A DNA stretch of 64,000 bases, from NCBI GenBank assembly GCA_905178155.1, contig CAJINV010000009.1, positions 3,554,275 to 3,618,274 on the forward strand, in the 5' to 3' direction. The notes under the pieces are model-generated. The model saw only the letters and a list, made by a program, of their open reading frames with translations, had not been told where the DNA came from and made no database searches. Source of the stretch: Amoebophrya sp. A120. Taxonomy: Eukaryota; Protista; Dinoflagellata. Positions 1,636-24,974 of the stretch are shown here, in pieces; within the stretch, counting starts at the first letter, position 1; each line of letters begins with the position of its first letter. Made by a program: the position numbers and the translations under genes.

Positions 1636-4600
1636 ATGACAACCTCGAGGAACTACAGTGACAAGTACAAGAGCCCCCGAAAAAGGGCCCGCCTACGCAG
1701 ACCTGGCCGCTCTTCAGTGAAAAACAACTTGCTCACAAAGCTGCTTGAAGCCGTGAAAGGACGCATCCAGGACCTACAGAGAAGAGTACTAGATCCCTTT
1801 TTCCAAGAATCACGACGTAATGCTAAAGGTGATAGGGACCGTCAAGAACGCAGCTGGTTTGCTTTTCCAGTTTCGGGAGTAGGACCGGCCACTTCGACGT
1901 CCCCGGGCAGGAAAATGCGAAAAAACATCGATGCATGCAGCTCCTGTAAGGCGAGAGCGAGACGGACCGCCACGCATGGGCATCAGCGAGGACGGCGAGA
2001 AACGTCTGATCACATGAGCGGGAGGACTGTGAGCACAAGAACTAGCGATAACTCATCGTGTATTTCTCCCCGATCATTGCAAAATGCCGTAGGCTACAGC
2101 TGCGGTTGCCGAACAAGGTGGAGAAGGAGAACGGCACAGAGAAACGGAGTTGCAGCTGGTGCTACAAGCGGTGCTGCGACAAGGGCAACGACCGGAATAA
2201 TAAATGGGGCACCTGAAGATGTAGGAGCGCGGCGTAGTTGCAAAACGATCTCTTCGACTAGAGTCAGAGACAAGAACCTACCAAGCCCCAGCACCAGCCT
2301 CCACTGCAAGAACCTGATAAACCCCTTTCACCCGAAAGAGCAGTTCCCAATATTCCTATCCCTGTTCCTCTACCTCCAAACCTTCCTCAACTTTACCTTC
2401 GCCGCCTACTTCCACGTCCCGCCAGTCGACTCCACCTGGGTCCGCCCACTCATCCTGCCCTGGGAGCCGGTACGAGGGACGAAGGACGCGATTCTAGTCA
2501 CTTGGACCACCGGCTGGAACCCCAACGCCGCAGTTCTACGCTCGGTGTTGCAACGACGCTACCCCGTCGCGATCGGGTCCATGAACATCGATCTGCGGAA
2601 CAGGAACCAGGAATCCGCTACTTGGTACAACTCCACCGAACAATTCCCAGGATTTTCGCCCTGGGAAACGGTGTACGAGGGTCCGGGAAAGCAGTTCGAG
2701 AACACAAACCTACTCCCCGGCCATCCCTACGAGTTCCGGGTAAAGACGATCGGGCGGAACATTTTGAAATCAGTCCACCTCGGCGAGAACCCAGACACGG
2801 AGTCCGAGTGGTCGGTCCCGCAGATGGCCCACACGAACTACGACCCGATCCGGGAGCGGTTTCCGATCTTACTCCAGGGGATGTCGGCGCACAACCCGGA
2901 CTACGCCATAATCGAAATCGACCGGATCCAGGTTTACAGAAGAAGGGACGAGAAGGGCTTGGTTTTGGCGGTTTTCAGTAGGTGGAACATGCAGCTGATC
3001 TGGTATAAGAATTTTTTTTTTGCTAATTATCCATTGTACTGCGCGGGTGCATGACAGCTGTTGCCTTGCATCGGCGTTACGCGTGACAAATTATCATATT
3101 TTATCAGGTTGAAAACGTACAACACCTTCAACTATCCGGGGGATTCGAACGCGATGGCAAAGGACATTCGAAGATTATGGATTGCAAATATGTCTGGGTC
3201 TGAAAGATTCTAAACTTGTAATGCTGTCTCTGGATTCTACAAGAATTTGTATTGCATGACCAGCAAGAGGACTCCGGTTTGTGCTACGCGGAGAGGGCAT
3301 TTGTCATCCGGTACAGGCATCACAAAGTCCTCTAAAAATATGTGATGCTTGGGCATGCATCACAAACATCATGGGTCATTCAAAATATTATATGCATGAC
3401 AAACTTGGCAATCTTCCAGACCCAGACACTTTTGCAGTTGATAAAGATTAGATCAGTCCCATTTCATCGCGGTTGTCTCCACCGACGCGTGGGAGTGGAA
3501 CGTGACGCCGAGCCTGATAAAAGCCATGGAATTCTGCGGGGCCTTCCACTTCGCCACCTGGAGCCGGAATTACGGCGGGAGCCACATCAAGATGCCCACG
3601 CAGACAGGGTAGAAGAGGATAGGTTTTTTGATTATCTTCTCGATCTCCGAGAAGACTAACTTAGTCTTCTAACTAAACCTTAGTAAGGTTTCTACGCATC
3701 ACAACTGCTGTGTCTGTAGCAGCATCATGCTGCGTGCCAAACTCGCAGCTGGGAAAATGTTTCTGACTTCTTGTGAAAATCAAATATGTAAATCAGTTTT
3801 GACGTCGACCAAACCTCGAGCCAAAAGGGTTTCGGCAACCCCTACGCCTTCTGGGGCATTCCTGGTTCCGGAACCGGGATGGGGTTCGAATCCGTCGCGT
3901 GGCCAACCTCCGCTTACCTGATGCAGAAGCTGGCGCCAAACGCGATCGTGCGGCTGATTCTGTACATGGACTACGTGGTTCGCCACTACTTTGTTTCCCT
4001 CCCGTCGGTCCAAACGGTGTCTACGTCGTTTCACACGAAGGCTTTACCACCGACTCATGAGTCGTTGCACAACCCCTACACGTATGCACAGCGGCAGCTG
4101 GTGTGCGAAGGGCCGAACTGCAACGAGTACCAAGTCGGGGTAAAATCCTACATCCAGGAAGACGACTTTTACAAGGTCTACAACGGGGAACTCCGGGTCC
4201 ACATGGACAGGTTACTAGAAGCGAACCGCACCGTCGACCCGCATTACTACCACTTTTTCCTTTTCACCAACTCTTCCATCTACAAATTCGACCCCAGACC
4301 CGCGGAAACGAGAGTAACGGAACTAGAGCGGGTGTGGGGCGGGCCGTCGGAACGGTTTCACTTCAACGTGTCGGCGCAGGCGTATCAGCTGTCCGTGTTC
4401 CAAGAAGCCTTGCCGAGCTGGTTTCCGGAGAGAACGGGGATCCCTATGCTGTGCAAAAGTATCGTACTCGTAGCAATTGCGTTGATGCATGACAAATCTC
4501 TTTCTCAAGGTAAATCAGCATTACAAATTCGATTCGATTCGTAATGCTGCGCCAATTTGTAATGCAATTTATACTAGTACGATACTTGGTTTTGCAATGC

Positions 4601-5014
4601 ATAATTCCGTATAGGAAGCGATACTGCCCGGACCTGTTCCGGTCGGATCGGTTTGACATCAACCCGATAACATGCAGAAACACCTCCCGCAGGCCGACGA
4701 ATGAATCGACTCTCTCCCCAGACAACTCCTGTTGCGACTACTTGGACTGGAACGTGGGTGGGGACCCGAGCAGGGATTATTTCCTCGGGTTGAGGTGCGG
4801 GGTCGGGGTGGTACCGACGCTGTGTAACGAAACATTGACGAGTTTCTTACCCTCCATCTCGCACAAACCACCCTTCAACCACACGATGGGGCTGGGAACG
4901 CCATTGCCGCCGGTGTTTTCGAAACTTCCCCCCACGCAGTCGGTGATGGCCGCCATGCTGGGCTTCCAAAACCCGTTTCCGAACGGGCATTTTCACCACT
5001 TGGCAACGGTGTGA
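1636..5014 (+). CDS. Fibronectin type III + ILEI/GG-type-like domain protein (spliced; start uncertain)
   Basis: FN3-like segment WETVYEGPGKQFENTNLLPGHPYEFRVKT..SEWS. Spliced continuation GLVLAVFSRWNMQLIWLKTYNTF..AMAKDIRRLDQSHFIAVVSTDAWE..PYAFWGIPG resembles ILEI. GT-AG introns 3003-3107 and 3609-3796; introners 3176-3443 and 4445-4603. Confidence 0.65.
3176..3443. mobile_element. Introner family A (TIR ~TATCAAATGCAAAAATGTCTGGGTCTGGAAG)
   Basis: TSD AAGAT/AAGAT, TA termini; join RRLDQ. Confidence 0.9.
4445..4603. mobile_element. Introner family B (TIR ~TATnnnTGCAAAAGTATCGTACTCGTA)
   Basis: TSD ATCCC/ATTCC; join TGIPYRK. Confidence 0.85.
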
Positions 5015-5044
5015 TGAGGTGGTGGTGAATCGGGAATAAGCAGC

Positions 5045-7160
5045 AGAGGAATTATCGTCACATGGGATTTTTCCCGGAGGTACATTATTGCGCAGCAACT
5101 TGTCGTAGACTAGAGCTGACGCTAGCATGCTCCTGAGATCAATGAGATCATAGAGATAGGCTAGCAGTATGCCGATAGGTAGACGAAGATCTCGACACAT
5201 TGAGGGGCCGCACTAGTAGGATCAGACATCAGTGGATCACTAGGGTGACTAGGATCACATGCACTACACCACCAGGATGGTGAGCACAACACCATGACCA
5301 TGGTAACAATGTAAATGAATACAGTGCCAGAATGGCTTCTGGTCTCCGGGCCAGTAGCTTGACGAAACAAATTGCCCTGAACTCCGTAGCACCTTAGTTA
5401 GGTGCCTAGATAGTAACTCTGTTCTCTATCTCAGGACAGCATGCTAGTGCGCATGCCGGTCCTCGGTGGTTGACAGCACCTCGACAGAGTTATGAGCCCA
5501 AAGAGTTCCCCTATTGGGAGCGGGTAAGTACTACTAGCCACCCCGACCTATCCCTGCATAAGAGTAGGGAATGAGCTCCCCAGCTCGTGGCCGTAGTCGC
5601 CTCCTTGTGTGGCTAGTCCGCACATGGAGAGCCAGCTAAGCGCAAGGCGCTAGAAAGGGCAAGACCCCCCTCGCCACATATCTGTCGATGGCAGTTCTTG
5701 TTGCGAGCGTGGGGCACGTAAGTAAAAGTAAGTAGCAACACAAACATGGTGGCGCAGCAGCGACCTCCAGGGTGTTGCAGTAGAAGGAGAGGAATTATCG
5801 TCACATGGGATTTTTCCCGGAGGTACATCTACAGAAAGGTTTTGGCGGGAAGGTTTTGGCGGGAAGGGCAGTCAACGCACGAAAAAAACTTGGTTTCCCT
5901 GCCAAGCAGCAAAAGGCAAAGCAGAAAAATGAGCAAAGTTTTTCAGGTTCCCGATGCCCGCAAAACAAGCACGAACAAAACCAAAAGGCAAAGAGAAAAA
6001 AAATCCAAAGAAAACTGGCAGGCGCAAACCGCCAGCAGCAGCCCAAAACCTAGAACGCCTGGCCCGGCCGGCGCCTGTCGTGCCAGAACGAGAAGCAGGG
6101 CCCAGCAATCCAGGCAGAAAATGAGCGCGCGCCCTTCAGGTTGTTCTCGTTACATTCTGCCGCGTTAGACGCGCCCCCTAGCCTACCGGCTGGCACCAGA
6201 AATCCGCAGCAGGCGTAGCCACCCTCTCTGTTTTCATTGCAGTCACCCCAGTGTAACTAGGGCAAGGGTGCCGCTGTCGCTCCTCGGGGTGCATGTGTTT
6301 CGGCTAGCTGTAGCTGCGATTTGTGGAGTTAGGGGTCGCCGGTCCCGGTGATCGCTCGGCACATACAAAAAGAAGCAGACACAGCTGCAATCCCGTGAAC
6401 CGCTGCGCACCTCCTGTTGGCGCTAATTGTAAAGCGCGCGGGCGCGCCGCTCCAGTAGCAGAGCTTCGCCACAGCTCTTGCTTCCCAGTAGCAGGCACCC
6501 CTGCAGCAGCGCAATTATTTGGTCCAAGTCCTTTACCTTTTTTTACTGTATGCGAAGCTGATGAATATGAAAGTAGGCGGCCGCCCGACCTGCCTTGCTT
6601 CCCCGCCTGAACGCGACAGGTATTCCGGTGGTTGTCTCTGTGCCCCTCCCAGCCCGCGCGCGGTTGGTCGCTTTTGCGCTTCCGTTTTCGAGACGGTAGC
6701 TAGGCCGGTCGCGCGTGGAAGAACAACTACAAAGACCTGCTTGCAAAGCAGACAAGCCACGTAGTGTTCTTGTTTGAGTAGAAAAAGGCGACTTTTGGGC
6801 TCGAAGCTGTAGACAGTTTTGGGCCAAGACCTGTAGAGGTCGACCTCTAGAGGTTGACCTCTAGAGCTCACCCCTACAGGTTTTGCACCTCTAGAGGTCG
6901 CGGCCCTCCTCGAGCTCCAGGTTTTTCCACAGTAGTATGCGGATTCGAAATAGAAAAGTAGTCAAAAAAAAGGCTACCTCTAGAGCTTTGGCCCTCTTTT
7001 GGCCCAGGTTTGAGCCAGGTCCGCTTCACAGTAGCGTCGTCATTCGAAAAAAACCGGCAATGGCCGTCGTTTGAGCCTTCTTGGTCCCAGGTTTTAGACT
7101 ATTTGCTGCGAGTACTATAGTTCTTTTGGCTATCGTCACATGGGATTTTTCCCGGAGGTA
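5045..7160 (+). repeat. Three direct copies of TATCGTCACATGGGATTTTTCCCGGAGGTA
   Basis: 41-bp identical copies 5045-5085 and 5788-5828; 30-bp core at 7131-7160. Confidence 0.9.
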
Positions 7161-7809
7161 GATGGATACTACTTGACCTACAAGGCGGCCGGGACACGAA
7201 CACTCATTGCAAGGAAACGAAAGCTCATCGCGCTACTATGCGTAGTAGAACCGAGTGAGGATGTGTAGGTGAACGTGGACGAAAGACCCGAACAACTTTA
7301 CTTAAAGTTGTCAGCGTCAGCATTTTCTGGGTTCTTCTCTCCACACACACACACGCAATGTTGCTGGGAGGCAGATGACCGGCATGAAACCAGGTCTGCT
7401 ACTGCGTTGCTGTTTCTTGCAACCAACTACGAGTAGAGCGATCAAGGAAACTACAGCCCGTGAGTGTGAGCGAGGTAGTACTAGGAGGGAGAACCTTGAA
7501 ACTGAAAAATAGTCATATAATTCCCATGCCACGTCTTTATCACCGTACAATTTCGCAGGACCTCCTGTTCAACTTTGATGCGCCACCCATATTTCTATCC
7601 ACTTTCCCCTGCTGCTGCTACAATGTGTCTACCCTTTAGAAAAATGATTATTTCTCTTCCTCGTGTCCCGAAACAATAACAAGCATGCTGCTTTTTGTGT
7701 AGCAAACGAAAACCAGTACAGTAGTCGCTAGACTATCACCTCTACTCAATTTACCCAGGCTATGGCTATTCTAGGAACACAACCCCAAAAACATCTCTAA
7801 ACATCAACA

Positions 7810-10800
7810 ATGGGTCAACTTCTCAGTTGTTGCCCGCGCCGTGGCGCGACTGAGGCTTCCGCGAAGGTCACTCCTGCCAAACCCGGAGTTCTAGACCGGT
7901 CTGATGACCTCTCGAATATTGCGGTCGCCGGACCACCCATAACGGCCACGGCGGTTCTCTCCGAGGTCCCCTCCGATGTGGACAAACAGAAGGACTTGGA
8001 GAGAATTCAGCTCACCACCGCGTCTACGACCGTTTCTGATGTAGAGCTGCCGGACGTCCTATCCAGGAAAAAACACCCAGTTCCATCCAATTTGTTATGC
8101 AGAACATGCATAAGCTTAAGCTGCAGTGTTTGTCATGCAAAAAATGGATGGGTATGGGTGTTTTTTCCTGGATACGTCCCTGTCGAGAAGCAATTCATTC
8201 CGCCCCCAGCCACTTTCCTCGACCTCCCGCCGGAACTCCTCATGACGATCTCCGAGTTCATTTCGAAGAACAAACGATCGCTCTGTGTGATTTCAAAGTC
8301 GTTTTTCAAGAACGCGAATTTCACCGCCTTTCCGAGGAACGAACTGATTTTGGAAGCGTGTCGCCGGGGATACGCGGCGTGGCTAAATTTGGTTCTGGTG
8401 GACGAGGAGAATGTTGCAACAATTGTGGATGAAAACGATAAAACGGCTACATTCCTTCCAGTCATCCCTGAACAACTGTTAGAAAAACTTTCCTCCATCT
8501 ACGACCGCTGTAAGATGACGATTTTTCACCACTCCGTTGAGTCCGGAAACGCGGAGACGGTGAAATTCTGGATCGATTTGTTTTCCAAAACAGCGAACCC
8601 AAATCTGGAATTGTTGGAAAAATTGCTAAACTCCCAAGACGTGTGGAAGTGCGTTCCGATGCACCGGTGCCGAACCGCGGAGATCGCGACATTGCTAACC
8701 ACGGTGAAAGCAACAGATCCACAGAACAAAAGCAAGGAAATCAAGATCAAACCCAAGCTGAACCTCGTGACCCGGGCGGATGTGAAGGACACGCTCATTC
8801 AAGCGGGGGATTCCGTGGGTCATGTTGCAGTCCGGTATGATAAACCAGAAATGCTCCAGGCATTAATCGACCAGATGAAGCAGACCGGCTTGGATTTGAA
8901 CATCAGCAATCGAAACGGGGACTCTCCTTTGGACATCGCGGTCGATCTGAAAATGCCGGCTTGTATCCTGTGCAAAAGTATCGTACTCGTATTGCAGTCA
9001 TGCATTTACAAATCTTTTTCTCAGCGTAAATCTGCATTACAAATTTTATTTCGCATGCTGAGGAAATTTGTCATGCATTTATACGAGTGCGATACTTTTG
9101 CAATGCATAGCTTGCGGATCCTTACTAGTGAAAGCAAACGCAAGCCGTGCGCAATGGTCCGCGCGGAAAATGACCTGGTACCAGGTATGGCCTGCTCAAA
9201 CGTTACAATCTCAAACGTTACAATAGAATCTGAGATTTGTCTTGCATGATGGACATGACAGACTCGCAGACCATTCCACTTTCTGCAATACAAATTTCGC
9301 CAGATTGTAGTGCGCATTGGGACTCCAGAACTTGTCATGCGCAATCCTATGAGAGTTGGCTAGATCATGCACTCTTGCATCACAGATTTCAATATTCTAT
9401 TGTAACGCTTGAGATTGTAACACCTGAGCGGGTTATACCAGGCAGTAGAGACGAAAATGGTGTTTGTAGTGGAGTTATCAAACGTAAAAATGTCTGGGTC
9501 TGGAAGAATGGAACTTGTGCTGCTAAATCTGAATAATCCAAAAATCTGTGTTGCGTAAGTGCCAAAAGCTGTCCGCTTTTGACCAAGTTGGGAGGGAGTT
9601 TCTCGTGCAGGAAAGGCATGACAGAAACCTCAAAGAATCTGTCATGCTGGGTCTCGCATTGCAGACCTCATGGGTCATGGAAAACCTGCATCACAAATCT
9701 TGCATTCTTCCAGACCCAGACATTTTTGCATTTGATAGGAGTACATGAAAACGAAGGGTCTAGCAGCTCCCGGCGGGGTGAACTTCCAGCAAAACAACAG
9801 CACGGGGGCTCCTGGGGGGACGGGATTATCAGGACATCAGGGAACAAACAACAGCGAAACGGGGGAAGCGGCGCTGCATTTGGCGTGTAGCTCGTTTTCT
9901 AGTGAAGACGGTAGTCTCGTCGTCCCACTGGTCGCGGGAACTACAGGGGTGCAGCACACAGCTGTGCACCCGATAAAAGCAATAGACACCGGCGTCCTCG
10001 TCCTAGACCCCGAGATCTGCAAAATCCTGTTGGATTCCAAAGCGGACGCAACTTTACGCGATAAGTCCGGGCAAACGGCGCTGCACAAAGCGTGTGTCTC
10101 AATGCGGAACGTGTTGGGCTGCAAGGATGGTATTAAGCACTGCCACAAAGATCATTCGCAAGAGGCTGCAAATAAAATGCGCGACAACGAGAAGAAGGTC
10201 TTACAAACCTGTGATTTTTTGTTGAAAGCGAATCCGCGGACTGTGGCGTACCAGGACAATGAGAAGTGCTCCGCTTTGATGCTAGCAGCAGGCTCTGGCA
10301 GCTTGGAGCTCTTGAAGTTACTGATCAGCTACTGCAGTGCAACCAATCTAGAGAGGGAAAGTAGCGGTGTCGCGGGAGCAGGAGCAACATCAACATCTAC
10401 ATCATCCACTCCAACAGCGCATCAATCCGATTTATCGCCCTCGAAACTACCGCAAAACAGCAGGTCGCAAGACCCGGAGAAGTTGATTCTCGAGTCCCGG
10501 GACGTGCAGAAAAGGAATTTGCTCCACTACGCCTGCACGTTCGACAATGTGGAAGTGGTGAAATTTCTCATGGAAAACTACATTTTGAACGAAACAGAAC
10601 ATCCTCAAAACACGACGCCCACATCAAGTACAAATTCAATCAAAAACCGAAAATTACTGACCACCGCCGTGGACGAACGAGAGCGGATTCCCTTCATGAC
10701 GGCCATCGTCTCCCGGGCGAGAAATGTTTTACAGTATTTCCTCGAATTAGAAAAGCAGAGACCAACCACATCGCTCATCACAAAACAAGTGGATCAGCAG

Positions 10801-11998
10801 CTTCAGACACCACTGATGCTGGCTTGCGGCGACGCGGAATTGGTGGAAATTTTGCTGAAGGACGAAGAAATTATGAACTCCGAGATGATCGAGGAAGTCG
10901 ACTGGGAGGGCAGAAACGCGTGTCATATTTCTTGCCAGTTGGGAGATGTGGAGTCGTTGCGATTGCTGACGGAGGTCATGGATCGGAAGTACAGTGATGA
11001 GAGCGAAAATGTAGCGGGATCCGAGCTTCTACTGAATAACACAATGGACTGGGGCTGGACCTGCTTGATGCTGGCCTGTGACAAAGGCAGCTTGGAGTGC
11101 ATCGAGTTTCTGTTGCAGACAGGGAAAGAAAAAGATGTTGACATGGCAGCACCAGCATCAGAAACTTCTTCTACGTCAAAGATTTTAAACCAACTCAATG
11201 CCCGGCGGTCCGACGGCTGCACGGCGATGTTGGTTCTCGGGAAAACGGATCAGATTTCTATCAAATGCAAAAATGTCTGGGTCTGGAAACTTGTGATGCT
11301 GCATTGCGCATGATTGAAGCGCTTCCAATGGCAGCCAAGCATGACAAGTTTTTGAGAGGCCTTCTGATGCCTAGCAGGTATTACAAATTGCGTTTTTGCA
11401 TGACAAAGAAAGCCTCTCTTTTGCTGCTCATGCAACACAGATTTTCCAGGAATGCATGACACGCATTACAAGCTCACTTTTCCAGACCCAGACATTTTTA
11501 CATTTGATAATTTCCACCGGAGACCAACTTGTCCAGATCTGGGAAAAGATTTTACTACAGGCAGAGGATAAAAACCAGAAACCAGTTTCGGATTTGATTC
11601 TCTTCCAACTCACCCACGATAAAGAATCTTCCTCCTCCCGAACCTTACTCCATTTTGTCGCGCAGAACCCGCATATAGAAGTGAACAGCTGTCATACCGC
11701 GCTGGACTTTTTGCTCGCAAAAGGTGCGGATGTGAACGCAAAAGACTCCGTGAACTGGACGGCTTTGCATTACTGCTGTCAGAAGGGGGATTTGCTGTCT
11801 GTCGAAGTGTTATTCAAATACAACGCGGTCGATTCGGAAGATGACGTCGGGGTGTCCGCCAGGAGTCTGGCGGAAAAATGCGGGCATCACCATTTACTGA
11901 ACGCGTTTCCCGGCAATGTGAACTACACGCTGAATGCCACGGGGGGCAGCTTGGGCGGAAACAGTTTAGGAAGTGGGAGCTCGCCGATGCGGGCGTGA
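7810..11998 (+). CDS. Ankyrin-repeat protein with F-box-like motif and N-terminal MGxxxSCC acylation-like motif
   Basis: Ankyrin motifs GDSPLDIA, GQTALHKAC, RNLLHYAC, WTALHYCC; FLDLPPELLMTISEFI is F-box-like. Removing five introners gives a continuous frame (e.g. MPACGSLLVKANAS, WYQAVETKMVFVVEYMK). Confidence 0.85.
8060..8174. mobile_element. Introner family G (TIR TATCCAGGAAAAAACACCCA)
   Basis: TSD CGTCC; in frame and stop-free. Confidence 0.9.
8964..9109. mobile_element. Introner family B
   Basis: TSD GCTTG; join MPACGS. Confidence 0.9.
9186..9437. mobile_element. Introner family C (TIR with tandem CTCAAACGTTACA)
   Basis: TSD CCAGG, which also yields GT-AG ends. Confidence 0.9.
9476..9737. 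mobile_element. Introner family A
   Basis: TSD GGAGT. Confidence 0.9.
11259..11509. mobile_element. Introner family A
   Basis: TSD ATTTC; join DQISTG. Confidence 0.9.
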
Positions 11999-12624
11999 TG
12001 CAAGGATTGATTTCATGTTGAACTTGAATGAAAGAATTACGCAGGTACTAGTACAACTGACTGCTGATTACTTGTTTTGGTCGGTGTCGACAGCGAAATC
12101 GATTGCGGTGACATCGTGTTGCCAAACGCCATGGTTCACGGTGTATTTGCAAATGCTTAATGGTGCGGTTTAGTGATGTGCCGGAAGTAGAATTAATTGA
12201 GCTTGTTCTGCACCACATCGCGAGTGCAAGAGCGAAACCCCTGCTCCTGCGAGCGAAATGGATATTGATGGGCTTGGAGTGCTGGCGGGAGGCGCAGGTG
12301 ATTTTGTTGGCGTAGAGCGAGTTGTAGTGCGTCTGCGTAGTTGTGCCTTCAAAAGGGTTCTTCAATGCAAAAGTCATTGTGAGGAGATCATCACTGTCAC
12401 TCTGTGGATCTTAAACCAAAACTGTGATCTTGAGAACCAAATCAACACCAAAGAGGAGCCACCAGCCGCTGGTAGAAGTTGCTGCGGCTTCTGCGAAGAA
12501 GAAGATGGCTACGACTTGACAGTTCGAGCGGCAGGAGCTCGACCTCCAGAGCAGCTCCAGCGGTGAAAAACTCATGCTGCCCAGCGGGGCGACTGCGAGG
12601 GCGACAAGAGCACGACGAGAGAAG

Positions 12625-15600
12625 ATGATGGTGCCGTCGCTTCTCTTCGCCAGCTTGGGCGCAGTAGCGCCGTGGTTTTTCTTCTTCACAAATCTCGTGA
12701 TTATCGGAGTAGATGCTGTCACCGTACAACAGCAACGAGCTTCGGTTGCAGCGGGAACAGGTGCGGGCAGAAGTACGTCTGCAGCTCTGTTGGAGAAGCG
12801 CCGTCGTGGAGCTCGTAGGGGAACGAGTCGAACGACGAAGTTCTCTATGCGGGGAAAATACAATCGCAGAAAGACCACTAGAACGAACTTCATTTCCCAG
12901 AAGGAGGCCCTGCTGCAAGTCCCGCACCACCTGCGACAGGAATTTGCTTTACTGCAGGAACAAGACCAGCATAGCCATGCAGGGACCAACATCAAGACCT
13001 CCCACAAGAGTAGAAAAGCAGCCTCTACTTCTTCTGCTGCGACGGCAGAAATAAGAAACGCGAACAAAATTCTCGAACTGAATAAGCTTTACTCCAAGCA
13101 CTTCGCTCAGCTCGACGAAACCATTCTTTCCTGCAACGAGAAAAAGCTCAACCTCCAATCGAAGTTGAAGGAGGAGAGTGAAAAATTGAAACAAAAACAG
13201 CAGCAATCAACCCAGCAATTGAGAAACAAAGACCTCCTCTACAAGACCGTCCAAGAGTTACAAGATAATATGCGGATTTCCGTGAACGAGATCGAGAAGC
13301 AAAAGCAGCTGTGTGAGAAGCAAGCGAGTAGCAGAAATGGAGAAATATTGGCTTTATCCCAGGACGAGCAGTTGGTCGGGAAGTTTCAACCTGACTACAG
13401 TACTTGCGACAAAACAGTCTCTTCACCGCCGAAACTTTTGGAGTGCACGTTACCCGACGGGTCACTGTTCTTCACTTTCGCGAATGGGACGCTGCATAAT
13501 AGCATGCATTGCAAATATGTCTGGGTCTGGAAGGATGTAACTTGTGATGCTGCATTTGCATGCTACAAAAATCTGTGTTGCATGAATAGCAAAAGAGGTC
13601 CAGTTTTTGCCATGGCGAGAGGGCATTTCTCATGCGGTATAGGCATCAGGAAGCCCTCGCAAAACTAGTGATGCTAGGTCATGCATCACAGACGTCAGGA
13701 ATCATGCAAAATGTGCATGACAAACCTTGCAGCCTTCCAGAGTCAGACATTTTTGCATTTGATAAATAATTTTGTCAGGAAATTCGCATCTAAAACCAGC
13801 AAAGAGCTGCTCTCCTTGAACTTGATGCGGATTCTGTACAGCAGCGAGGGGGCGATGCCGGGGGACTCGGCGCTGTTGCAGATTTCAACATCTGGGCAAA
13901 ATGGAAAGAACTTGATGTTCACGACAAGAGGTGGTCACGATCAACAACATTCTAGTAAGAAGATAAAACCGCACTTCCTCCTCCAAAACACGACGAATTA
14001 CAACGTGTCGGAGATTTTAACAGCAGAGGAGATCAACGACGGCGTGAAGTGTGCGAAGCATGCGAAACAGTTGAAAGGTCAAGACTGCGGGTTATACCAG
14101 GATTTGATCGCCACTTTCGAAGATTCCGTCCGCGACAGTAAGATCACTGCGAAGCAAGAATTGGTGAAAGAAACCGAGAAATATCCACGAAAAAACACCC
14201 ATCCCCATCCAATTTGTTATGCAAAACAAGCATAATTATGATTTGCAGTGTTTCTCATGCAAAAAATGGATGGGGATGGGTTCTTTTCCTGGATAAGAAA
14301 TGCGACAAAGCCACCAAGGATTTCGAAGTTTTGTCCTCTGGAAACAAGGCGAAATTACTGCAGCTGCAAGCGGAATTGCAGGAATCCGTACAGTATTTGC
14401 AGCAGTACGTCTTCGAGGCGGGGAAGCAGAAAACCACGTTTGAGGCAGTGTCAAAAGACATTGCGGCGGAGGTTTTGAGCTGCGAAAATTCCATCAACGC
14501 GGAAAAACAGTCGCTGGAGGGGCTGAAGATGTTGTACAAAACAGCTACCAACTCTGCCGGTGGTGCTGGGTCTTCTAGTACGACCTCAACATCAGGGTCA
14601 ACCTCAACAGCAGCCGCAAACAACAGCACTCCTGTGCAGTTCATGGGAAACTGCGAAGTTTCTCCGTTCGTCGCGGACACCCCCTGCGTTTGCACCGTCG
14701 GGAAGGACGGGGTGGTGAAGGGAAAGCAGACGCTTAGTCGCGAAATTGTGAACGTGGATTTTTCTGTGGCGGGTAACAAGAATTTCAACAAGGCCAGTTC
14801 CTGTCCGCCGCTGAAGTTAGTCGACCGGAGTTGCGATTGCAGCAGCGGGAGTTCAAGTTCTTCAGCAGGACAAGCACCGTCCTCCTCATCTTCCTGCCGC
14901 CCCTCCAAGTGGTCGGAATGGTCAGAGTGCACGCAGCAGTGCGGCACAGGCTTGCAATCGCGAACCCGGACGTTGCCGACAGGTTCGTCCTGTACTAGCG
15001 GTGGATCCGCTTTCCTACAGGACCTGAACACGGTGGAGGAGCAGGAGTGCAACACCCATCCGTGCGACTTGAACTGCGAATTGAGCGAGTGGACCGCCTG
15101 GTCCGGATGCACCAAGCAGTGTCGCACCGGGCACCAAGTGCGCAGACGGGAACACGTTTTGCAGCAGGCCCTCGGTGACAACGGGAAGTGCTGGAAGAAA
15201 AACTCGAAACAACGGCTGGAACTGCAGGTCTGCAACACCAACGCAGATTGCGTTGGCGCTTCTGGGGTGAAGCAGGCCGTGCCGAGTTGTAGTGAAAACA
15301 AACTTTCTGCGTCGAATTTGCTGTTTTTGGTCGACGGATCCGGGTCAATGCAAGTGCAGCAGAAGTCCACTGGTGGTGGATCAGCAGGAGCTACAACATC
15401 CCAAACGACCATCCTTCAAGACGTGCAAACGTTTCTTCTCTCCTTCGCGAAACGCATGAACTTTTTTCCGACCAGTGGTGTCACGAAGAACAAAATCGGG
15501 CTGATCACCTTCGCGGACAGAGCAGAGAAGATCAGCTTGGCGCAGGTAAATGAGCAGCAGGTAGTGCAGGAAGCGGATTTGAAGAGCGCAATCGTGGAGA

Positions 15601-16019
15601 AATTGCCGAAAAGTTTACTGAACGCCGGACACAGCACCAATTTAGCCGCGGCATTGTCTCTGGCGACGAATGAGCTAAGCTGTGGTGCCAGTACAACTTC
15701 TTCGTCATCCTCCTCTGTCGGTGAGTTTTGCCAAAACCGAGAATCGTCAACCTCCACCACTGCTATTCCGACGGTGTTTATCATCACAGACGGTATGCCG
15801 AGGTCCAAGTACTTAGCGACCATGGAGATGCAGAAGCTGGGGAAAATCGCGCGGGTGTTTTTTCTCACGATTGGGAATTCGCTGAATAAAAAGGTTCTGA
15901 AGAATTTTGCGACCTTTCCAAGTTCGGAAAATTTCTACCACGTATTGGAGAGCGCGAAATTGAAAGAGGTGGAAACCGTCACGGATATCATGGCGAATTT
16001 CTGTACGAAGTTTGCATAA
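12625..16019 (+). CDS. Secreted coiled-coil / thrombospondin type-1 repeats / C-terminal von Willebrand A domain protein
   Basis: Hydrophobic N-terminus; TSP1 motifs WSEWSECTQQCGTG..RTR and WTAWSGCTKQC; vWA MIDAS LFLVDGSGSM..TNLAAAL..IITDG. Introners 13503-13764 and 14182-14295. Confidence 0.85.
13503..13764. mobile_element. Introner family A
   Basis: TSD AATAG/AATAA; left terminus CA instead of TA. Confidence 0.85.
14182..14295. mobile_element. Introner family G
   Basis: TSD AGAAA; join TEKCDK. Confidence 0.9.
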
Positions 16020-16752
16020 ACGGTTGTAAGCAGTTCATCGAAGAGCCACTGCTTGGTTTTATTGTTGTTTTCCACTCATAGCTTCCACCAGTCTAGAGGA
16101 ACGAATTTTCTTTTCCACAAATAGCCACGAATTGGATTTGCAGCAACACTTAGTTACAGCACATTGGGCGCCACGCTGCCTTGAAGAAGCAGGTGCTGTG
16201 TCGTACATGCAGCTCACTAAGTGCAACGGTTTTGGTGCACCTGTTCTGTTAGGTAATTTTCGTCGTGGGACCACGAGATTTTCCTGTCGTACGAAAGAGA
16301 GACTCGGAGAACTAATCTCGGTGACAATGGTGCTGCACTGGGACGAAATCGAAACCACACTCAGCCACACGGTAAAATCGCAGACGCATTTTACTCTTCG
16401 AGAGAACAAGTCGTGCCATGCACACGCACCGATCGAATTAGTGATGAAGGTGTTTTGAGAAGAGCTAAGCCCGCCCAAAAAGCTTAGAGTCGTTCGTTCG
16501 CGTTTGTGAATATTTGGTCGAACATTTTATTCCCCGGCGACGCCGCGCCAAGACAGAGGCCCTTGCCTATACTATGGTATGACTTTTTTGATGACATGGA
16601 CCCAAACGGTAGAAAGAATAAAAACAAGACCGAGCAGCGGTGGAGTACGTGCTAACCCTAACGTCTACTTGTCGCAGCGCGACAATCTAAGGTTCTTTGA
16701 CTTACAGTACGTCGCACACAGAAGAACATAACAAGAAATCTAGACGAACAAG

Positions 16753-17503
16753 ATGTTCTGCTGCGTCCGCTACGGGCTCGAGGAGGACAGCAAAACCTTC
16801 TTCAACCTAAATTGCGGCACCGCGGTTTTGCAAGACTTTATCGAGTCCAAAGCTCTGAAGCAGATCAAGCTCGACATCACGAAGCAGAAGGAGATTCACC
16901 GAAAGCAAATCTCCACCCTGGCACGGCAGCTGAACGCACACAGCAAGCATCTCTCTATCCTGCAAAAGAGAAATCCCAACGCAACAGGAGCAACCGTCGC
17001 GGGTGGAGGCGCTCCGGGGGACGAGGAGACAGGCGCTGGGGACAAAAAAGAAGAGGAGCAGGAAGAAGAGGAAGTGGATGAATACGCAGCACAGGATGCA
17101 AAAATCGAGGTTCTGCCGAAGGATAACATGGAGACAGTGACCAGTTGGATCGAGGGGACGGAAGGGGAAATTAGGGACAGGTATCATCGTAGTTCTTCAT
17201 GACGACAATCTAATGGATGCACATGTTCATGACAAGGTCTAGGTGGAAGTAGGCCGGATCTTTTCCTCTCAGTCAGAGTGTCATGCTCGCACCACTTTCA
17301 CTACGGTAGGAAAAAAGAAAAACCTAAACTACCTTCCACATCTACTGTCCATCATACATCAACATTACAGGGAAGCCGCACTGGTAGCATTAGACGAGGC
17401 AGAAATCGCGTTCCAAGATGTCGAAAAAGTGGACCTCGTCGATTCAGCCACGCAAGAAAAAGTCTCCTTCCGCGAACTGTTCCCGGTGCATTTACGCTCT
17501 TGA
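16753..17503 (+). CDS. Small protein, N-terminus resembling CXorf65/C22orf15-type family
   Basis: MFCCVRYG..FFNLNCGTAVLQDFI. GT-AG intron 17181-17370 joins in frame to ..VDLVDS..; the 3' end is uncertain. Confidence 0.45.
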
Positions 17504-19535
17504 GAGGGTAGTTCTATCGGTTGTATGACTTCTGTCTGGAATCGCGGTCCTATGCAGTTAGAGTCACTTCTTGTTTTCCTCATTGTGATGATGTCCCAGC
17601 AAGAACCAACATCAAGCTTGAGCTTCATCGCTGTTTGTCGACAGCACACCGACGCAAGAACCCAAGACAGTTTTTCTTCTGATAGAAGATTTTTTTTCCT
17701 TCGCATACCCGTTGCCCGCAACCGCTTGCCTGCCACTGAGAAGCACGACGGATCTGATAGGTACTGAACATAATTCACGCAAGTAGATCTAATTGCACTT
17801 CAGCGTTTGCGTTCTCAGGTTATTGCAATTTCTTTGACCTTCTTTCATCATCTTTATCTGTGCAGCCGGGGGAACAAGTAGGACAAATTGTCATGCAAAA
17901 GTGGAACATACACGCACTCGCACAGGTCTGCGTGGCGAGGGCGTGGATCCGCTCCCGCTGACGTTCGCGGTGCCAAAAGTCGTGCGGTCGGCCGAGGTCG
18001 AACAAATGCTGCTGGAGGGGGTGTTGGCGGGGAGAAGGTGAGCTGCAGATGAGATGAGACTGCAGATGGATGACACTGCTGCAGCTGGAGGATCATCCTC
18101 ATCCTGGGAACAATTCCTTATTTGCACTGTGGTACTGCTTCGTCTCTGTTGTGCATTCGAAGACCGAAGATGAAGTAGTAAGAAACAAAACTGAAATGAA
18201 TCCACAACTACTAAAGAAGATCAGGAAAAACTACAGGAAGCTGCGCTTATGTTTTGAATGAATTGGCTAGACTATTGCTTTCCTTGTCTACTTGTGTCCT
18301 CGCAACACTGAAAAATAATGTTGGACGATACGCACCATAGCCCTGATAGTGCTTCTTGTGCTGCCTGCCTCTAGTACCGGCGGGTAGAAATAGAGCGTTG
18401 CAAAAAGTTCCTGCGTACTGTTCTGCACAACAAGTCTGTCACTGAGCTTCTGCGGAACGTGTGCTGGGGGTTGTTGTGTCGAAATACCTACTACATTAGC
18501 CACAGTGGATTTCGTGCTAGAGCTAGTTGTTGGAAAAATTGTTTAAAAAAGAAGAGTGGTTGGTAGTTCTCGGGCGAGGACGAGATTGCAAAGAAGCAAA
18601 TCGGAGTAGATGACAGAACCTCAGGAGTAGATCTCTAATATCATTATCACACGCAAGCTGATGTCAAGCCTACTGTCTGCGGTGCATAAATTCTGGTACG
18701 ACTGGAGGTGGTCGTGAAGACCTGCTGCAGGAGCAGGAGTTCTGCAGCAGGAACAATGTAAAAAGTCTTTTTGGGTGAAGAAAGATTCTACGTAGAAACA
18801 TGAAAGTGATTCCCTGCAGCTCGTAGTCGTAGTTGGGACCGTCCGTCTCTGAACTATTACGGTAGACTGTGTCCGTTCGTAGCGGGAACTAGTATTTACA
18901 CTTCGTCTGCGTAGTTTGTTCGCAAGAACAATAGAGCAACCACGAGAATACAAAATATACACGTCGAACGCCAAACATGAGGGAATGCACTGCTGGAGCC
19001 GGTTTCTCGCCCAGATTTTACCTTCAGCCACCAGCCCCACCGCCCTGGCTGTTCGTGACCGGTGGACGATTGCAGGCCGGTGGCTGTGTGTCATCTCTGT
19101 CTGAGCTTGATGCTCTCTCAGCATGATCGAAGACGAACATGGCAGGAGAGGACCACGACAACGACCAGCCACTATCTGACCGAGGTATGTGAAGACGACT
19201 TGGGCAACGAACAAGTGAATACGACGAAAGCTGGTGCGCAGGGGATCGATACTAGGAAAGGGTCCTTCTTCTACTTATCACATCTTCAAACTGCTGCAGT
19301 AGAACGCTAGCCTCATCGTGTCCCCGGGGATTTGCTTTTGCAGCTTGGACGCCTTCTGACGTAGAAGTTCTTGTTTCTGGGTAAGAACAAGTTTACGTAG
19401 TCACGAAGACAAGAACCGCTGTCATCACTACGTAGCTGCGCTGATCAAAAAGAAAGATCTGAACTACTACACGATGAAGTAAATGCGGACTCCACTTCCC
19501 ACCTCGCCTCGACCACACAGAGACTGAAAAACATC

Positions 19536-22500
19536 ATGTCCAGTCCGTCAAATAACCTCCAGCAGCCTACTCCGGCGACGTCGTCCGGAGCTCCAGGAGC
19601 GCCATCAGGTGGACCTCCTCCCACCGGCGCGCTGAACCAATGGGCCCAGATTCCCGCCTCCGGGCAGGTCTATTCCGCGAGAACCGGCCACGTGGTGATC
19701 AGTTTTCAGGACCCCAACCGAACGGACGAGGTCAAGTTCTACGTCTTTGGGGGCACGGACGGCTCCGCGAGGCAAGCAGATGTGCACGAGTTTAACACCA
19801 GAACGAACGATATCGATTGCAAATATTTCTGGGCCTGGAAGGATGCGAACTTGTGACGCGCATTTCATAACACACGCAAACCTCTCATGCACAGGCAGCA
19901 AAAGATGCCCACTTCCTGTCACCAAAATGGGGCATTTGTTATGCGGATGACGCATTGCAAAACCTTAACCTTCACGAAACCTGTGATGCTAGGGCGTTCA
20001 TGCCAGACCTTCTGTGTCATGCGAACCAGCATGACACCTTTCCTTCCAGGCCCAGACATATTGATTTGCATTTGATAAACGAGTGGCACGCGGTCCGCGC
20101 CCACGGCACCCCGCCGGCGGCGCGGTCGGGCGCGCAGGCGGTGTTGTTCGAGGGCAAAGTGTGGGTGTTCGGCGGGTACACGAGAAAGGACGGGGATTAC
20201 TTCAACGATGTGTACGTCTTCCATTTACCCCGGGAAGGCCAGCACGCGAAGTGGGAGTGCATGACTACGCAAATCGCGGGCGAGGCGCCGTCGAAGCGCA
20301 CGGACCATACGACGGTGTTGTTCGGGAGGAGCATGTGGGTGTTCGGTGGCTTTGACGGAAGAGTATGAATTGCAAAAGTATCGTACTCGTATAAATGCAT
20401 GAAAAAAATAAATGCATTACAAATTTTCTCAGCATGAGGCATAAAATTTGTAATGCTGATTTATCTTAAGAAGAAGATTTGTATTGCGTGATTGCAATAA
20501 ACGAGTACCATACTTTTGCACAGGATAAAGAACAAGGTTTAACGATCTGCGGGAATTGCGGCTGGGCGTGTTTTATCAACTGCAAAAATGTCTGGGTCTG
20601 AAGATTGCCAGGTTTGTCATGCATATTTTGAATGACCCATGATGTCTGTGATGCATGCCCTAGCATCGCAGATCTTTAGAGGACTTTGCGATGCCTCTAT
20701 CGCATGAGAAATGACCGCTCCGCGTAGCACAAACTGGAGTCCTCTTCCTGGTCATGCATGACAAATTTTTTTAGAATCCAGAGACAGCATTACAAGTTTA
20801 GAATCTTCCAGACCCAGACACATTTGCATTTGATATGTTTCCGAGTGGGGGTGTCACGGAATCCAGCTCCGTCCCGCAATCCCGGCATCAGTCCGCCTGG
20901 ATACAGATCTCCACCCGGACGCAGCGACCCAGGCCGCGGTTCGGCCATTCCGCGGTCACGTACGAGAACTCCATGTACATCTTTGGTGGTTGGGACGGCC
21001 ACCAAACGCTGCAGGAATTGCAGGAATACAACTTCAACACGAATGCCTGGCAAGCCGTCGGCACGGGCGGGGCGGGCGGCGGCGCCAGCGTCAATCCGGC
21101 GAATTTGGAGCAGGGTGTATGCATTGCAAAAATTCATCACTTGTCGCACTCATAGAAGAAAATTTTTGCAGTGACGCATGGCAAATCCGATTGCTTTGTT
21201 CTAAACATGAATCAGCATATAAAACAATCTTCATTTTTGCTTTTGAAGAAACTTGTCATGCGAGTAGTACACGATAACGTCGATTATACTTTTGCAATGC
21301 ATAAACTGGTAACCCGAACAATGTCCGGAATTCCGCAAGCACGAACGGGCAGCAGAACAACAGCGCCGGTCTATTACAATAAAAAATACCCCCACACCAG
21401 AATTTGCAAAAGTTTCTCATGCAAAGTTTCCAAATAAAAGATTTTTGTCTTGCATGACAGGACTACGAGCCTTTCTGATGCAGAATTTACATTCAGGTGC
21501 GCAAGGCATCTTTTGCATAACAGAACCGGCTACTGTTGGGCCCCTTTGCAAGACAAATTTTTGCTATTCACGATTGGAAGTCTGTGATGCTCATCGATGC
21601 ATGAGGGCGAATGTTTCATTTGGAAAGGTTTGCAATACAAATGCTATCAAGTTCGGGGGTGGGGGAATTTTTCATTGCAATACGGTCCGAGCGCCCGCTA
21701 CCGACACAGCGCGATCGTCTTAGCGAATAGCATATCCACAGTAAATTTCCTGTACACGTACAAATGCGGTCTCTGCATGGCAAACCTAGGCTTCGATCCT
21801 AGTTTAGCATGACAAGTTTCACACTCCAAATTGGGGAAATTTGTGATGCATCTTGTACATGTGCGGGAAATTTGTGTTGCATATAGCATGTACGTGTTTG
21901 GCGGGGTGGATAAAGACCAAAAGCGCTTCAACGACTTGTACCAATTCGATTTCTTCCAGCGCCGGTGGTCCTACGTAGACGTCATTGGCGCGGTGCCCCG
22001 GAATCCATCGGAACCCGAATTGGTTGGCGGGAATGTGCCGACGGCGAGAACCTTTCACCGGGCTGCGGTCAACGAAATTAGCGGCAAGATGTACATCCTG
22101 GGCGGGTTTGACGGCCGGAGACAGAACGACTTGCACGTCATCCAAGTGGTTCCCCACGTGTCGCAGCGCACGCCGTCGGTGGTGGGCCGCGCGCGTGGGG
22201 TCGTAGCAGGAACGGGATCTTCTTCCTCCTCGAGTGCACCACCGCCTCCACCGGCGAACCAGCAGTCGGGCATATTCAGCGGAATCACGAACAATTTAGG
22301 GTTTTTCAACCCAGGCTCACGGACGAACAGCACGGGAAGCAACGCTGCCGGTGGAGGACCGCAGCCTCTCGTGTCGGGGTCCAGCGGGGACTTGCAAGGC
22401 ATGGCATCGGTGGATACGACAGTGGACGGGGGAATAGTGGGCGATGGAAGCGAGGTATAGTGTGTAGCTAGTGCTTCTATTTTTTTTGGTTGTCGTTTCC

Positions 22501-24554
22501 GTTTGTGATGCAAAACACGAAACCCAAGCCCAACAAACATTTACATTATCCTCTACTCCTCCCACAGGCCGCGACCGCTCTGATGCCTGAGGATTTCTGG
22601 AAGTGGCAGGCGATAGAACAGCACGGCAAGATATATACGCCCCGGACAGGGCACGCGGTGGTGGTGTATGGGAACAAATTTTACCTCATGGGCGGGACGG
22701 ACGAGAGCGTATCAAATGCAAAAATGTCTGGGTCTGGAAGAATGCATGTTTGTCATGCTTGTCTGGCATGACTCTTAAATCTGTCATGCACGTTACCCAA
22801 GAGCCCCATTTTTCTGCGATGCAGAAACGCAGTTTGTCATGCAGAATAGGCAACACCTAGAAGCTCAGAAACTTGTCATGCTGAGCCAGCACTTGTGGCC
22901 CGATCATGAGACGCCACCCAGCATCACAAGTTTCCAGACCCAGACATTTTTGCATTTGATAGAGCGCGCGGCAGAACGACATCTACTGCTTCGATTGCGA
23001 AACGAACAACTGGACTATGCTGCAGAATATCAAAGGTATACACGGCGATGTTGACTCACCAGCAGTTTGTGATGCTGATGCGCGGTCTCCTGAGTCGAAG
23101 TACTTTTGATTGTATTGCATGTCAATCAACATGTAATCGTAATTATGTTGCATGAGTGAGACTGTTGTTTCCGCATGCCACCTCACAACTGAACAACAGG
23201 CAACCCGCCCTCCGCCCGGTCCGGCTCCAAAGCCATCGTTTATTCCGACTCAATCTACTTCTTCGGGGGCTACACGAAGAAGGACGGGGAATACTTTCAG
23301 GACCTTTACTCCTTCAACCTGAGAAGTAGCTTCTGGCAAAAAATCAAAGCGGAGAACGAAGAGCTCCGACCCCATCCGAGGACCGATCACACCTGTTGCA
23401 ACTACGGACCGAACATCTTTGTCTTCGGTGGGTTCGATGGCCGCAGCAGATTTGACGATCTGCGCAGGTTTTCTATCGACTACAACCGGTGGGAACACAT
23501 CCCGCAGCAGCAGGCAACACCGATGGCAAGGTACTTATAATTTTGAATCGTGTACTCTGCTTTTGATCATCGGAACGAAGGTTTCTTGCATTCCATGACT
23601 TGATGTATGAGAAGCAGTGTAGCGTTTCGCAGGCCGTACTAAACTTCTACTTTCCACAAACTCAGGTTCGGTCATTCTGCCTGCATGTATGGCAGCTCCA
23701 TGTACGTTTTTGGCGGTTGGAACGGGCACGATACCCTCGACGACCTCTCCGAGTTTTCCACCACCACCGGCACCTGGTACCACATCCCCGGACGGGGCAA
23801 CGTACCCACAAGTCGCTACCGCCACTCCGCCATCGTGTACGGCTGCTGCATGTTTCTGTTCGGCGGGGTGGACAAGCAGCAGAACCGTTACAACGACCTC
23901 TACGAGTTCAACTTCGACTCGAGGAATTGGTCAAGGATTAACACCAGCGGCGAAATCGCGAGACCGACCCCGCGAACGTTTCACAAGGCGTGCATTTACG
24001 GCGGGAGGATGTACATCTTAGGTGGCTTCGACGGACAAAGACGGAACGACATGTACCGGATAGCGATCATCGAGGAGCGGACCGAAGAAGAGAAGAAGCA
24101 ACAACGGGGGCTAGCCCAGCAAATGCGCCGCTTGCGGGAAGACGGGCAGCAAGGGACGTCCGGAGAGCCGAATTTATTTGCTGGGGAGGAGGATGACGAT
24201 GAGGATATGGGGACAAGTTTAAATGGAGGAACTTCCGCGAACGCAAGTTTTCTGGAATCCACCCCCGGCGGCGTAGCCACCTCGGCAGCGAGCAGTGCCG
24301 GACTTGCGTCTCCGACGCACGCCATGCGGTCGGAGCTAGTGAGCTGTAAAAAGCAGATCTTGGAATTGCAGAAGAGATTGGAGCGCGAGGAGGAACGGCA
24401 CATCTGCAAGATCTGCTACGAGCGGGAGATAAACTCGGTGATCCTGGATTGCAACCACTGCACGGCGTGTACAAGATGTGTGGCCCAGCTGGATTCCTGT
24501 CCGATTTGCCGCACCGTGATGCGGAAGGGGTGGAACGAAATTTTTTTTCAGTAA
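19536..24554 (+). CDS. Kelch-repeat protein with C-terminal RING finger (putative E3 ligase)
   Basis: Many kelch blades (RTGH..YVFGG, RFGHSA..YIFGGWDG, RYRHSA..FGG); RING CKICYEREINSVILDCNHCTACTRC..CPICR. Seven introners plus three GT-AG introns (22455-22567, 23036-23199, 23531-23665). Confidence 0.9.
19811..20077. mobile_element. Introner family A
   Basis: TSD AACGA; join RTNEWH. Confidence 0.9.
20364..20527. mobile_element. Introner family B
   Basis: TSD AAGAG/AAGAA; join FDGRxRFNDL. Confidence 0.88.
20574..20835. mobile_element. Introner family A (reverse orientation relative to the 3176 copy)
   Basis: TSD TGTTT. Confidence 0.9.
21118..21303. mobile_element. Decayed introner, B-like
   Basis: TIR TATGCATTGCAAAA; flanks GGGTG/AACTG diverged; removing element plus 5 nt restores frame. 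Confidence 0.7.
21372..21682. mobile_element. Introner family D (TIR with AAAAATTCCCCCACCCC)
   Basis: TSD CGGTC; join AGPSARYRHS. Confidence 0.88.
21733..21883. mobile_element. Introner family I (TATCCACAGTAAATT..)
   Basis: TSD TAGCA; join NSMYVFGG; sister copy at 28790. Confidence 0.88.
22710..22961. mobile_element. Introner family A
   Basis: TSD GAGCG; highly similar to 30331-30582. Confidence 0.9.
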
Positions 24555-24772
24555 AAAGAAAAACGGGGAGGATTAGGATACTAGGAAGGTGGGCGCGGAG
24601 GTCGCACTTGGTCCTCGGCGTAGAGGGTGGAACATTTGGTGTCATGTTCAACCAATTATACTTTTTTTCAACACGTTCACGTTTACAAATACAAACACAA
24701 AGCTTAGGCTTGCAATGCAGGCTGACGCAGCCGAACGAGCGGACGCTCCCCGGCAACCTGCTGGCTACAGCT

Positions 24773-24974
24773 TATCAAAGAAAAAAAGTTCGTCACGATC
24801 ACTCATGCGCATTTTTGCAATACAAAATTGTTTGCCATGCGTGAAAATGCATCACAAACTTCATAAGGGATTTCCCTAGTGTTTCTGCAATACAAGGAAA
24901 GTTTGTGGCGCTGGGAAAATTTGTAATGCAAAGCCTGCAAGTTAGTGACTGTGACAAACTTTTTTCTCTCCATG
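24773..24974. mobile_element. Introner family E copy outside coding sequence
   Basis: TSD CAGCT; right terminus TG; sister copy at 44688. Confidence 0.85.

Follow-up and report, generated by a model that had tools for sequence, protein, structure and literature searches.

How can one and the same element be removed from transcripts when it is inserted in either orientation in genes on a single strand? The question is raised by a 64,000-nucleotide stretch (hereafter the window) of contig CAJINV010000009.1 of Amoebophrya sp. A120, a marine parasite, where an element at 3176..3443 recurs as its reverse complement at 20574..20835, both copies lying in genes read from the + strand. These elements are the introners published for A120 (PMC7789003; Farhat et al. 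2021). We find that they are removed from RNA in both orientations and to the same length, that of the element plus five bases. The intron likely has the form N-TAT...ATA-NNNN with a single fixed register, which is bracketed by nine copies whose flanking repeats have diverged. It is probable that these elements, bounded by terminal inverted repeats (TIRs) and target-site duplications (TSDs), lie within exons in either orientation and leave as element plus five, likely at a fixed polar register and likely by the action of a relaxed major spliceosome.

The preliminary description of this DNA took 20574..20835 (family A, - orientation) to be the reverse complement of 3176..3443 (family A, + orientation), and alignment bears this out, with 237 of 268 columns identical. 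Aligned forward, the two are identical at 178 of 284 positions, which is level with a family A element compared to its own reverse complement (180/292). The interior of the element therefore lacks symmetry, and each copy has a true orientation. Family B shows the same inversion, with TATCCTGTGC at the start of 8964 and GCACAGGATA at the end of 20364, 31047 and 42492, as had been described. The hosts of 3176 and 20574 are indeed both on the + strand, to judge from the + frames of the annotated protein P0001 and from Pfam matches and GT..AG introns on that strand. The shared peptide MLGHASQTSWVIQN can also be read as described, from the + strand within 3342..3659 and from the - strand within 20466..20666. 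However, its open reading frames (ORFs) begin within the elements and are incidental, separate from the host frames, and we rejected it as coding sequence.

Self-comparison of the window and a scan for element ends, with a TSD match among the selection criteria, yielded 60 curated elements of 109–330 bp that occupy about 13 kb in total. With few exceptions they start TAT and end ATA, and a 5-bp direct repeat lies on both flanks. The repeat is perfect in 45 of the 60 elements, compared with 0–1 at shifts of one to three bases, and among the matches listed it is perfect in 196 of 241 cases in loci outside the window, the match being partly a selection criterion. TA, previously proposed as the duplicated target, was rejected in that role: it belongs to the element, and the true duplication is the 5-bp TSD outside TAT...ATA. 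We examined the ends of 134 elements in transcript orientation (the 60 in the window and 74 outside, the latter among the matches listed). At the 5' end positions 1–3 are TAT in 132–134 and positions 11–13 are A in 113–126, mirrored at the 3' end. Over 16 positions the 5' profile equals the 3' profile once the latter is reverse-complemented, with TAT-N7-AAA on the way in and TTT-N7-ATA on the way out. The signals are strand-symmetric because the two ends statistically mirror each other in transcript orientation. The elements show the features of miniature inverted-repeat transposable elements (MITEs), namely TIRs, a TSD of fixed length, many copies and no transposase, and would have spread as non-autonomous DNA transposons. 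Rfam gave no matches in the window. Truncated element fragments also occur outside the reconstructed frames, at 58952-59054, 61688-61745 and 63419-63480.

Neither large family is biased in orientation within the 64-kb window. Family A has 14 copies in a ratio of 8:6 (p 0.79), family B has 16 copies at 9:7 (p 0.80), and four smaller families also include both orientations. A metagenome scan found at least 130 loci from a set of related contigs, with 240 distinct elements among the matches listed; the 74 whose host strand could be assigned with confidence from the length of ORFs were counted and the other 166 left out. Among these matches the outside ratios are 10:14 for A1, 7:8 for B and 9:1 for a 22710-like subfamily, and pooling with the window gives 15:19, 16:15 and 12:2. 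The 22710-like subfamily includes 22710, 30331, 53811 and 11259 in the window and loci such as L002, L013, L014 and L016 outside it. Compared with the masked window, the outside loci shared nothing but repeats among the matches listed.

Removal from RNA is seen directly in assembled contigs of four runs (X3-X6), which come from no more than two samples in a single study; they are labelled RNA by guess and do skip GT..AG introns. All 14 elements in 19700-31300 are skipped as exactly their length plus five in these cDNA-type contigs (13 joints and one adjacent pair of pieces; 15 of 18 joints were listed for the second contig set). The preliminary description had called for a comparison of sense and antisense copies, and both orientations of both families are skipped in this way. 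In one gene, which encodes Kelch repeats, the + copy of family A at 19811..20077 is skipped by a joint of 272 (267+5), the orientation assignment of this copy being a weak link (score 0.21). The - copy at 20574..20835 in the same gene, with TSD TGTTT, is skipped in 4/4 runs by the joint 20568>20836, which spans 267 (262+5) and corresponds to an inferred intron at 20573-20839 on the + transcript. In a second gene, encoding SPX and EXS domains, the + copy of family B at 27024..27172 is skipped by 154 (149+5) in 3/4 runs; the - copies at 30643..30801 and 31047..31197 are also removed, the latter by a joint of 156 (151+5). Five further elements are consistent by contig-gap arithmetic, the expected and seen gaps being equal at 104 and 412. 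The first gap fits 8964..9109 (family B, +), 9186 and 9476..9737 (family A, +, in an ankyrin gene) each losing element plus five, and the second covers 13503..13764 (family A, +). An element in the 3' untranslated region at 24773..24974, past the Kelch-RING stop codon and with its end mutated to ATG, is flanked by X3 pieces that end at 24767 and start at 24975. Coding pressure is not needed at this site, because the copy is still removed as element plus five.

Annotated proteins also join across elements. P0001 joins across 3176 and 4445 with element plus five removed at 3176, where the homologues P0003 and P0004 are colinear; the TSD there is AAGAT, at 3171-3175 and 3444-3448, and the inferred intron is 3175-3447. 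P0005 joins across 11 elements, including the - copy of family B at 42492..42650 in a potassium-channel-like gene, and a - copy of family A at 38079..38340 lies within its conserved WWAVVTMTTVGYGD stretch. Colinearity with homologues holds at 3176, 38079 and 38430. Deleting element plus five opens + frames of 1454, 1384, 1048, 1037, 701 and 562 aa, and 50 of the 60 junctions then fall within stop-free + frames of at least 150 aa. In the control, frame-shifting lengths place 22–32 of 60 junctions in such frames and the +2 and +8 lengths 46 of 60.

The length removed does not by itself place the cut, which could in principle slide freely within the 5-bp duplication, the apparent register being a coincidence of few cases; the 45 perfect TSDs are uninformative on this point. 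We therefore defined the register k as the number of left-TSD bases kept, and read it where the two TSD copies differ from the base present in the transcript. Three copies differ at position 5 and were cut at or before position 4: 13503, which starts CAT and whose register comes from a contig piece ending at 13497; the - copy of family B at 20364..20527, skipped by a joint of 169 with a slide of 4; and a singleton at 26638..26947. Three others give k of at least 4. The copy at 30643 differs at position 4 (joint 30641>30806, slide 1). A degenerate TAC...ATA element at 17493..17707, outside the curated 60, differs at 3/5 positions and was cut at register 4–6 (joint 17491>17712 in X3). The element at 39152..39368 differs at positions 3–4, and annotated P0005 fits only registers 4–5. 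The remaining copies give k of at least 3 for a singleton at 21118..21303 (positions 1–3 differ) and for 39448..39685 (position 3 differs; P0005 fits registers 3–5), and of at least 2 for 28790..28940 (position 2 differs). These nine copies, seven read from RNA contigs and two from annotation, are all satisfied by k=4 alone. A lower register at 17493, 30643 or 39152, or register 5 at 13503, 20364 or 26638, would give a base in the mRNA other than the one seen, and with 9/9 informative copies fitting one value a freely sliding cut is very unlikely. The tally leaves out the diverged copies 4445 (synonymous), 48329, 49719, 35356, 53451, 55778 and 56889.

At k=4 the left copy contributes TSD bases 1–4 to the exon and the right copy contributes base 5. 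The intron boundaries are thus polar, lying 1 nt beyond the element in the 5' direction and 4 nt beyond it in the 3' direction, and alike in + copies of family A and - copies of family B. The proposal of removal by strand-symmetric signals stands in part: both orientations are removed precisely and their ends are mirror images. However, the cut itself is polar, and non-polar removal is not supported. The same register places T at +2 in 59/60 elements, A at +3 in 60/60 and T at +4 in 59/60. Three of the 60 can read GT..AG, all at k=4 (9186, 42723 and 53451); at 53451 the AG is present in the right TSD copy only. In Table S4 of PMC7789003 the nine predominant non-canonical classes of A120 all have T as second base, which is obtained at k=4 only. 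The same table gives nine predominant classes for strain A25 that are all TT-NN, and the A25 repeats start TTA (PMC7789003), so that T at +2 and A at +3 would be expected in A25 elements as well.

Removal could also take place in DNA, as the preliminary description allowed. In run X1, a DNA-type run that keeps GT..AG introns, contigs run unbranched from the flank 24–26 nt into element 3176 at a depth of 23–25, that of single-copy sequence, and a contig covering 20817-21426 contains element 21118 entirely. Flank-to-flank joints were absent from the 15 of 635 joints listed for the first contig set, which was dominated by repeat-to-repeat joints from the DNA run. X1 is a single sample and possibly the source of the window itself, and TA at both ends, inverted repeats and strand symmetry would all suit excision like that of the internal eliminated sequences of ciliates, with transcripts coming from emptied genes. 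In ciliate-type elimination one TA is kept and the element is absent from expressed DNA. Here the DNA contigs keep the elements, both TAs leave together with five further bases, and the cut is asymmetric relative to transcription. Excision from DNA in this manner is extremely unlikely.

The 15 canonical introns of the window (four from RNA joints, one bounded by contig pieces, two from P0001 and eight predicted by eye) provide a standard for the splice signals. GTA starts 15/15 and +4 is T or C in 14/15, mostly as GTAT or GTAC. The elements share this extended donor (T at +2, A at +3, T or C at +4), and do so at register 4 only. Because reverse-complementing one end of the element gives the other, TAT stands at +2 to +4 in either orientation. 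The preliminary description had set against its own reading the case that each orientation carries conventional signals of its own, and half of this is seen, a donor-like TAT in each orientation without a conventional acceptor. In the canonical introns G is the next base after the intron in 14/15, and there is no conserved pyrimidine tract.

We infer that the spliceosome is involved, and with it the enzyme and the rule at the 3' side. The inverted repeats would give either orientation the same TAT at +2 to +4 and the same 3' arm. TAT would serve as a GTA(T/C) donor whose +1 base is ignored, and a relaxed major spliceosome would cut a single base ahead of TAT and again four bases past ATA. No AG would be read at the 3' side; the cut there would follow from a fixed distance, placing it four bases beyond the terminal ATA, as measured either from a stem that joins the ends or from a branch adenosine within or close to the 3' arm. 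Polarity would come from the direction of transcription and symmetry from the inverted repeats. A120 has 83/89 spliceosome proteins together with U2, U4, U5 and U6, and U1 is reported as not found (PMC7789003). A wider rule for A120 can be offered tentatively, as something short of probable. Under it both the terminal G and the AG acceptor would be ignored, and any TAT-ended element would be removed seamlessly, whichever way it faces and whatever its 5-bp target. Both cuts would be placed relative to the inverted repeat, at 1 nt upstream and 4 nt downstream. The work would fall to a U1-less spliceosome whose branch lies no more than about five bases from the 3' end, or to a new pathway that cuts and joins RNA.

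Several observations weigh against a spliceosomal reading with a fixed register. There is no G bias at intron +1, where G is found in 37/134 elements (18/60 in the window; the outside copies among the matches listed) compared with 28% G in exons. AG stands at -2/-1 in 15/134; the 11/60 of the window, considered as acceptor-like enrichment in the TSD, was rejected as such, being 4/74 outside (among the matches listed). The +1 and -1 bases do not covary (p 0.51), and a spliceosome that ignores +1 and -2/-1 would be unusual. Canonical introns are without ATA at -7 to -5, and the 3' rule therefore differs between the two kinds of intron. The 22710-like subfamily looks biased at 12:2 (p 0.013 uncorrected, among the matches listed), with some assignments weak and with reverse copies included under looser assignment. 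Contigs lose minor isoforms, and the four RNA runs are few in samples and labelled by guess. The join at 3176 is known from annotated P0001 and is not among the RNA joints listed. The bound of k at 4 or more depends on one annotation and a pair of RNA contig joints, and the published NT-NN classes may owe something to annotation convention.

The main rival is a pathway in which a separate, non-spliceosomal endonuclease and ligase read an end-joining RNA stem and cut 1 nt before and 4 nt after it, along the general lines put forward for the nonconventional introns of euglenids. Pairing of the ends is predicted in nearly all copies: positions 8–13 are paired with P>0.5 in 57/60, with a median z of -8 (12 shuffles each). 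For the named copies 3176 and 20574 the predicted fold brings the two ends together (z -5.8 and -6.6), and the 15 canonical introns are predicted to be mostly unstructured. Such a pathway would also suit the free bases at +1 and -2/-1, the report that U1 is not found in A120 (PMC7789003) and the departure of euglenid introns as full-length circles (PMC11282704). However, any element with TIRs folds in this way, even if the fold has no role. On the transcribed strand the arms hold 127 G.U and 123 A.C mismatches among the matches listed. The predicted end-to-end stem makes the structure-guided removal proposed earlier conceivable, but these counts show no G.U excess and no sign of selection on RNA pairing, so that stem-guided splicing is unproven. 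Arm positions 4–7 pair in 143/240 cells, and positions 1–3 are predicted unpaired in 11/60 copies, spliced ones (20364, 27024 and 24773) among them. The register, moreover, puts TAT on the donor consensus. On this evidence a separate pathway is rather unlikely.

A further possibility keeps the spliceosome and assigns polarity to the GCATNACAAA box, which occurs in the elements in both directions (113 forward and 116 reverse, at most one mismatch) and could supply each orientation with a polar branch point or binding site. The box contains TNAC, which resembles the branch core yUnAy. At the same tolerance its density is 17.6/kb in elements, 4.9/kb in canonical introns and 0.19/kb in exons, and the last forward box often lies 40–52 nt before the 3' cut. 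Against this, the full range of that distance is 34–243 nt, 5/60 elements have no forward box, and inward-facing subterminal boxes also resemble a transposase-binding site. The canonical introns carry the box both ways as well, with 13 occurrences (8 forward, 5 reverse) compared with 1.5 in 200 shuffles (maximum 5); introns considered here include 3003-3107, 22455-22567, 33962-34044 and 55493-55704. The box may be a general mark of introns, or the canonical introns may be decayed elements. That the box supplies the polar signal is decidedly unlikely, more so than a separate stem-reading pathway, and a relaxed major spliceosome acting at a fixed register remains the reading we prefer.

All reconstructed genes (1636-58512) are on the + strand, in agreement with the co-oriented gene blocks reported for the genus. 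The host of 3176 spans 1636..5011 and encodes P0001 (882 aa). Pfam shows no family in either exon adjoining 3176, and the homologue P0004 contains PF15711. The reading frames of the Kelch-repeat RING gene extend over 19401..24554, with seven elements and three GT-AG introns in the coding part. On the + strand, 16 of 23 pieces have a Pfam match, to Kelch, RING, SPX, EXS, ion-transport, ankyrin, TSP1/vWA and EF-hand families. Two exon queries are 100% identical to proteins labelled Amoebophrya sp. A120 in the database. The gene at 12520-16016 encodes two TSP1 domains followed by vWA, a pairing known from apicomplexan adhesins. Two repeats unrelated to the elements were also observed, one at 728-1104 whose unit of about 21 bp occurs both directly repeated and inverted, the other a tandem array at 60651-61282 with its units about 107 bp apart.

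In Amoebophrya, introns without GT-AG are removed by the tens of thousands (PMC7789003). The published A120 introners have inverted repeats of TAT, seven looser bases and AAA, a hairpin, support from RNA-seq, direct repeats of 3–5 nt (5 bp in the legend of Fig. S19) and non-GT-AG ends (PMC7789003). The elements described here match them in the TAT-N7-AAA inverted repeat, the direct repeat at the boundary, the repeated families, removal from transcripts and mostly non-GT-AG ends. That paper calls the splice sites of introners variable or unknown and states the mechanism of removal as open, and its passages that use the word orientation concern gene order. In the full-text literature, figures, theses and subscription papers being outside the search, we found no statement of orientation symmetry or of a fixed register for Amoebophrya. 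The present analysis contributes the fixed register, its match to the donor and the finding of the box in canonical introns, and figures of PMC7789003 may already show a 4+1 split. Other studies describe a TIR family with integrase-like ORFs in A120 (PMC12130899) and a survey that sought opposite-orientation introner pairs (PMC9860276).

A fixed register turns borders described as variable and unknown into a single rule, NT-NN. It can be recovered from existing RNA-seq through copies with differing TSDs, making an open mechanism testable, and it indicates where branch points or circle junctions should be sought. If removal is spliceosomal, catalysis would proceed without the +1 G and the -2/-1 AG that structures treat as essential. 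The rule also explains why the elements could enter exons wherever they landed and whichever way they faced; the wider rule offered above, if true, would make a TAT-ended transposon harmless to coding sequence at every insertion site.

Introners of Polarella glacialis and Aureococcus anophagefferens also have TIRs and TSDs, give rise to introns in both orientations and take their splice sites partly from the TSD (bioRxiv 10.1101/2020.10.14.339549). However, these have GT, GC or GA donors and AG acceptors, so that only some targets work, whereas the A120 elements have neither the GH donor nor the AG acceptor as a rule, and any TSD is compatible with removal. Classes 6, 8 and 10 in that preprint are biased to one orientation, in contrast to families A1 and B. 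In Fritillaria borealis, MITE-derived introns with TIRs and TSDs are reported to be removed by the U2-type spliceosome despite non-GT-AG ends (PMC11282704; PMC13326754; bioRxiv 10.1101/2025.08.15.670264). The preferred ends there are AG-AC and AG-AT and U1 is kept, whereas in A120 the ends are free apart from +2 to +4 and U1 is reported as not found. Euglenid nonconventional introns have TSD-like repeats, a probable MITE origin and a stem that joins the ends at an asymmetric offset from the cuts (+4 to +6 with -8 to -6; PMC11282704); in the A120 elements such a stem is predicted, with no sign of selection on RNA pairing. The euglenid introns also have a pyrimidine|purine junction preference and circular products; in A120 the base counts are flat at both junctions, with no such preference. 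Compared with U2-type introns, the A120 elements have the extended donor and the polar boundaries, but lack GT at +1/+2 and the AG acceptor.

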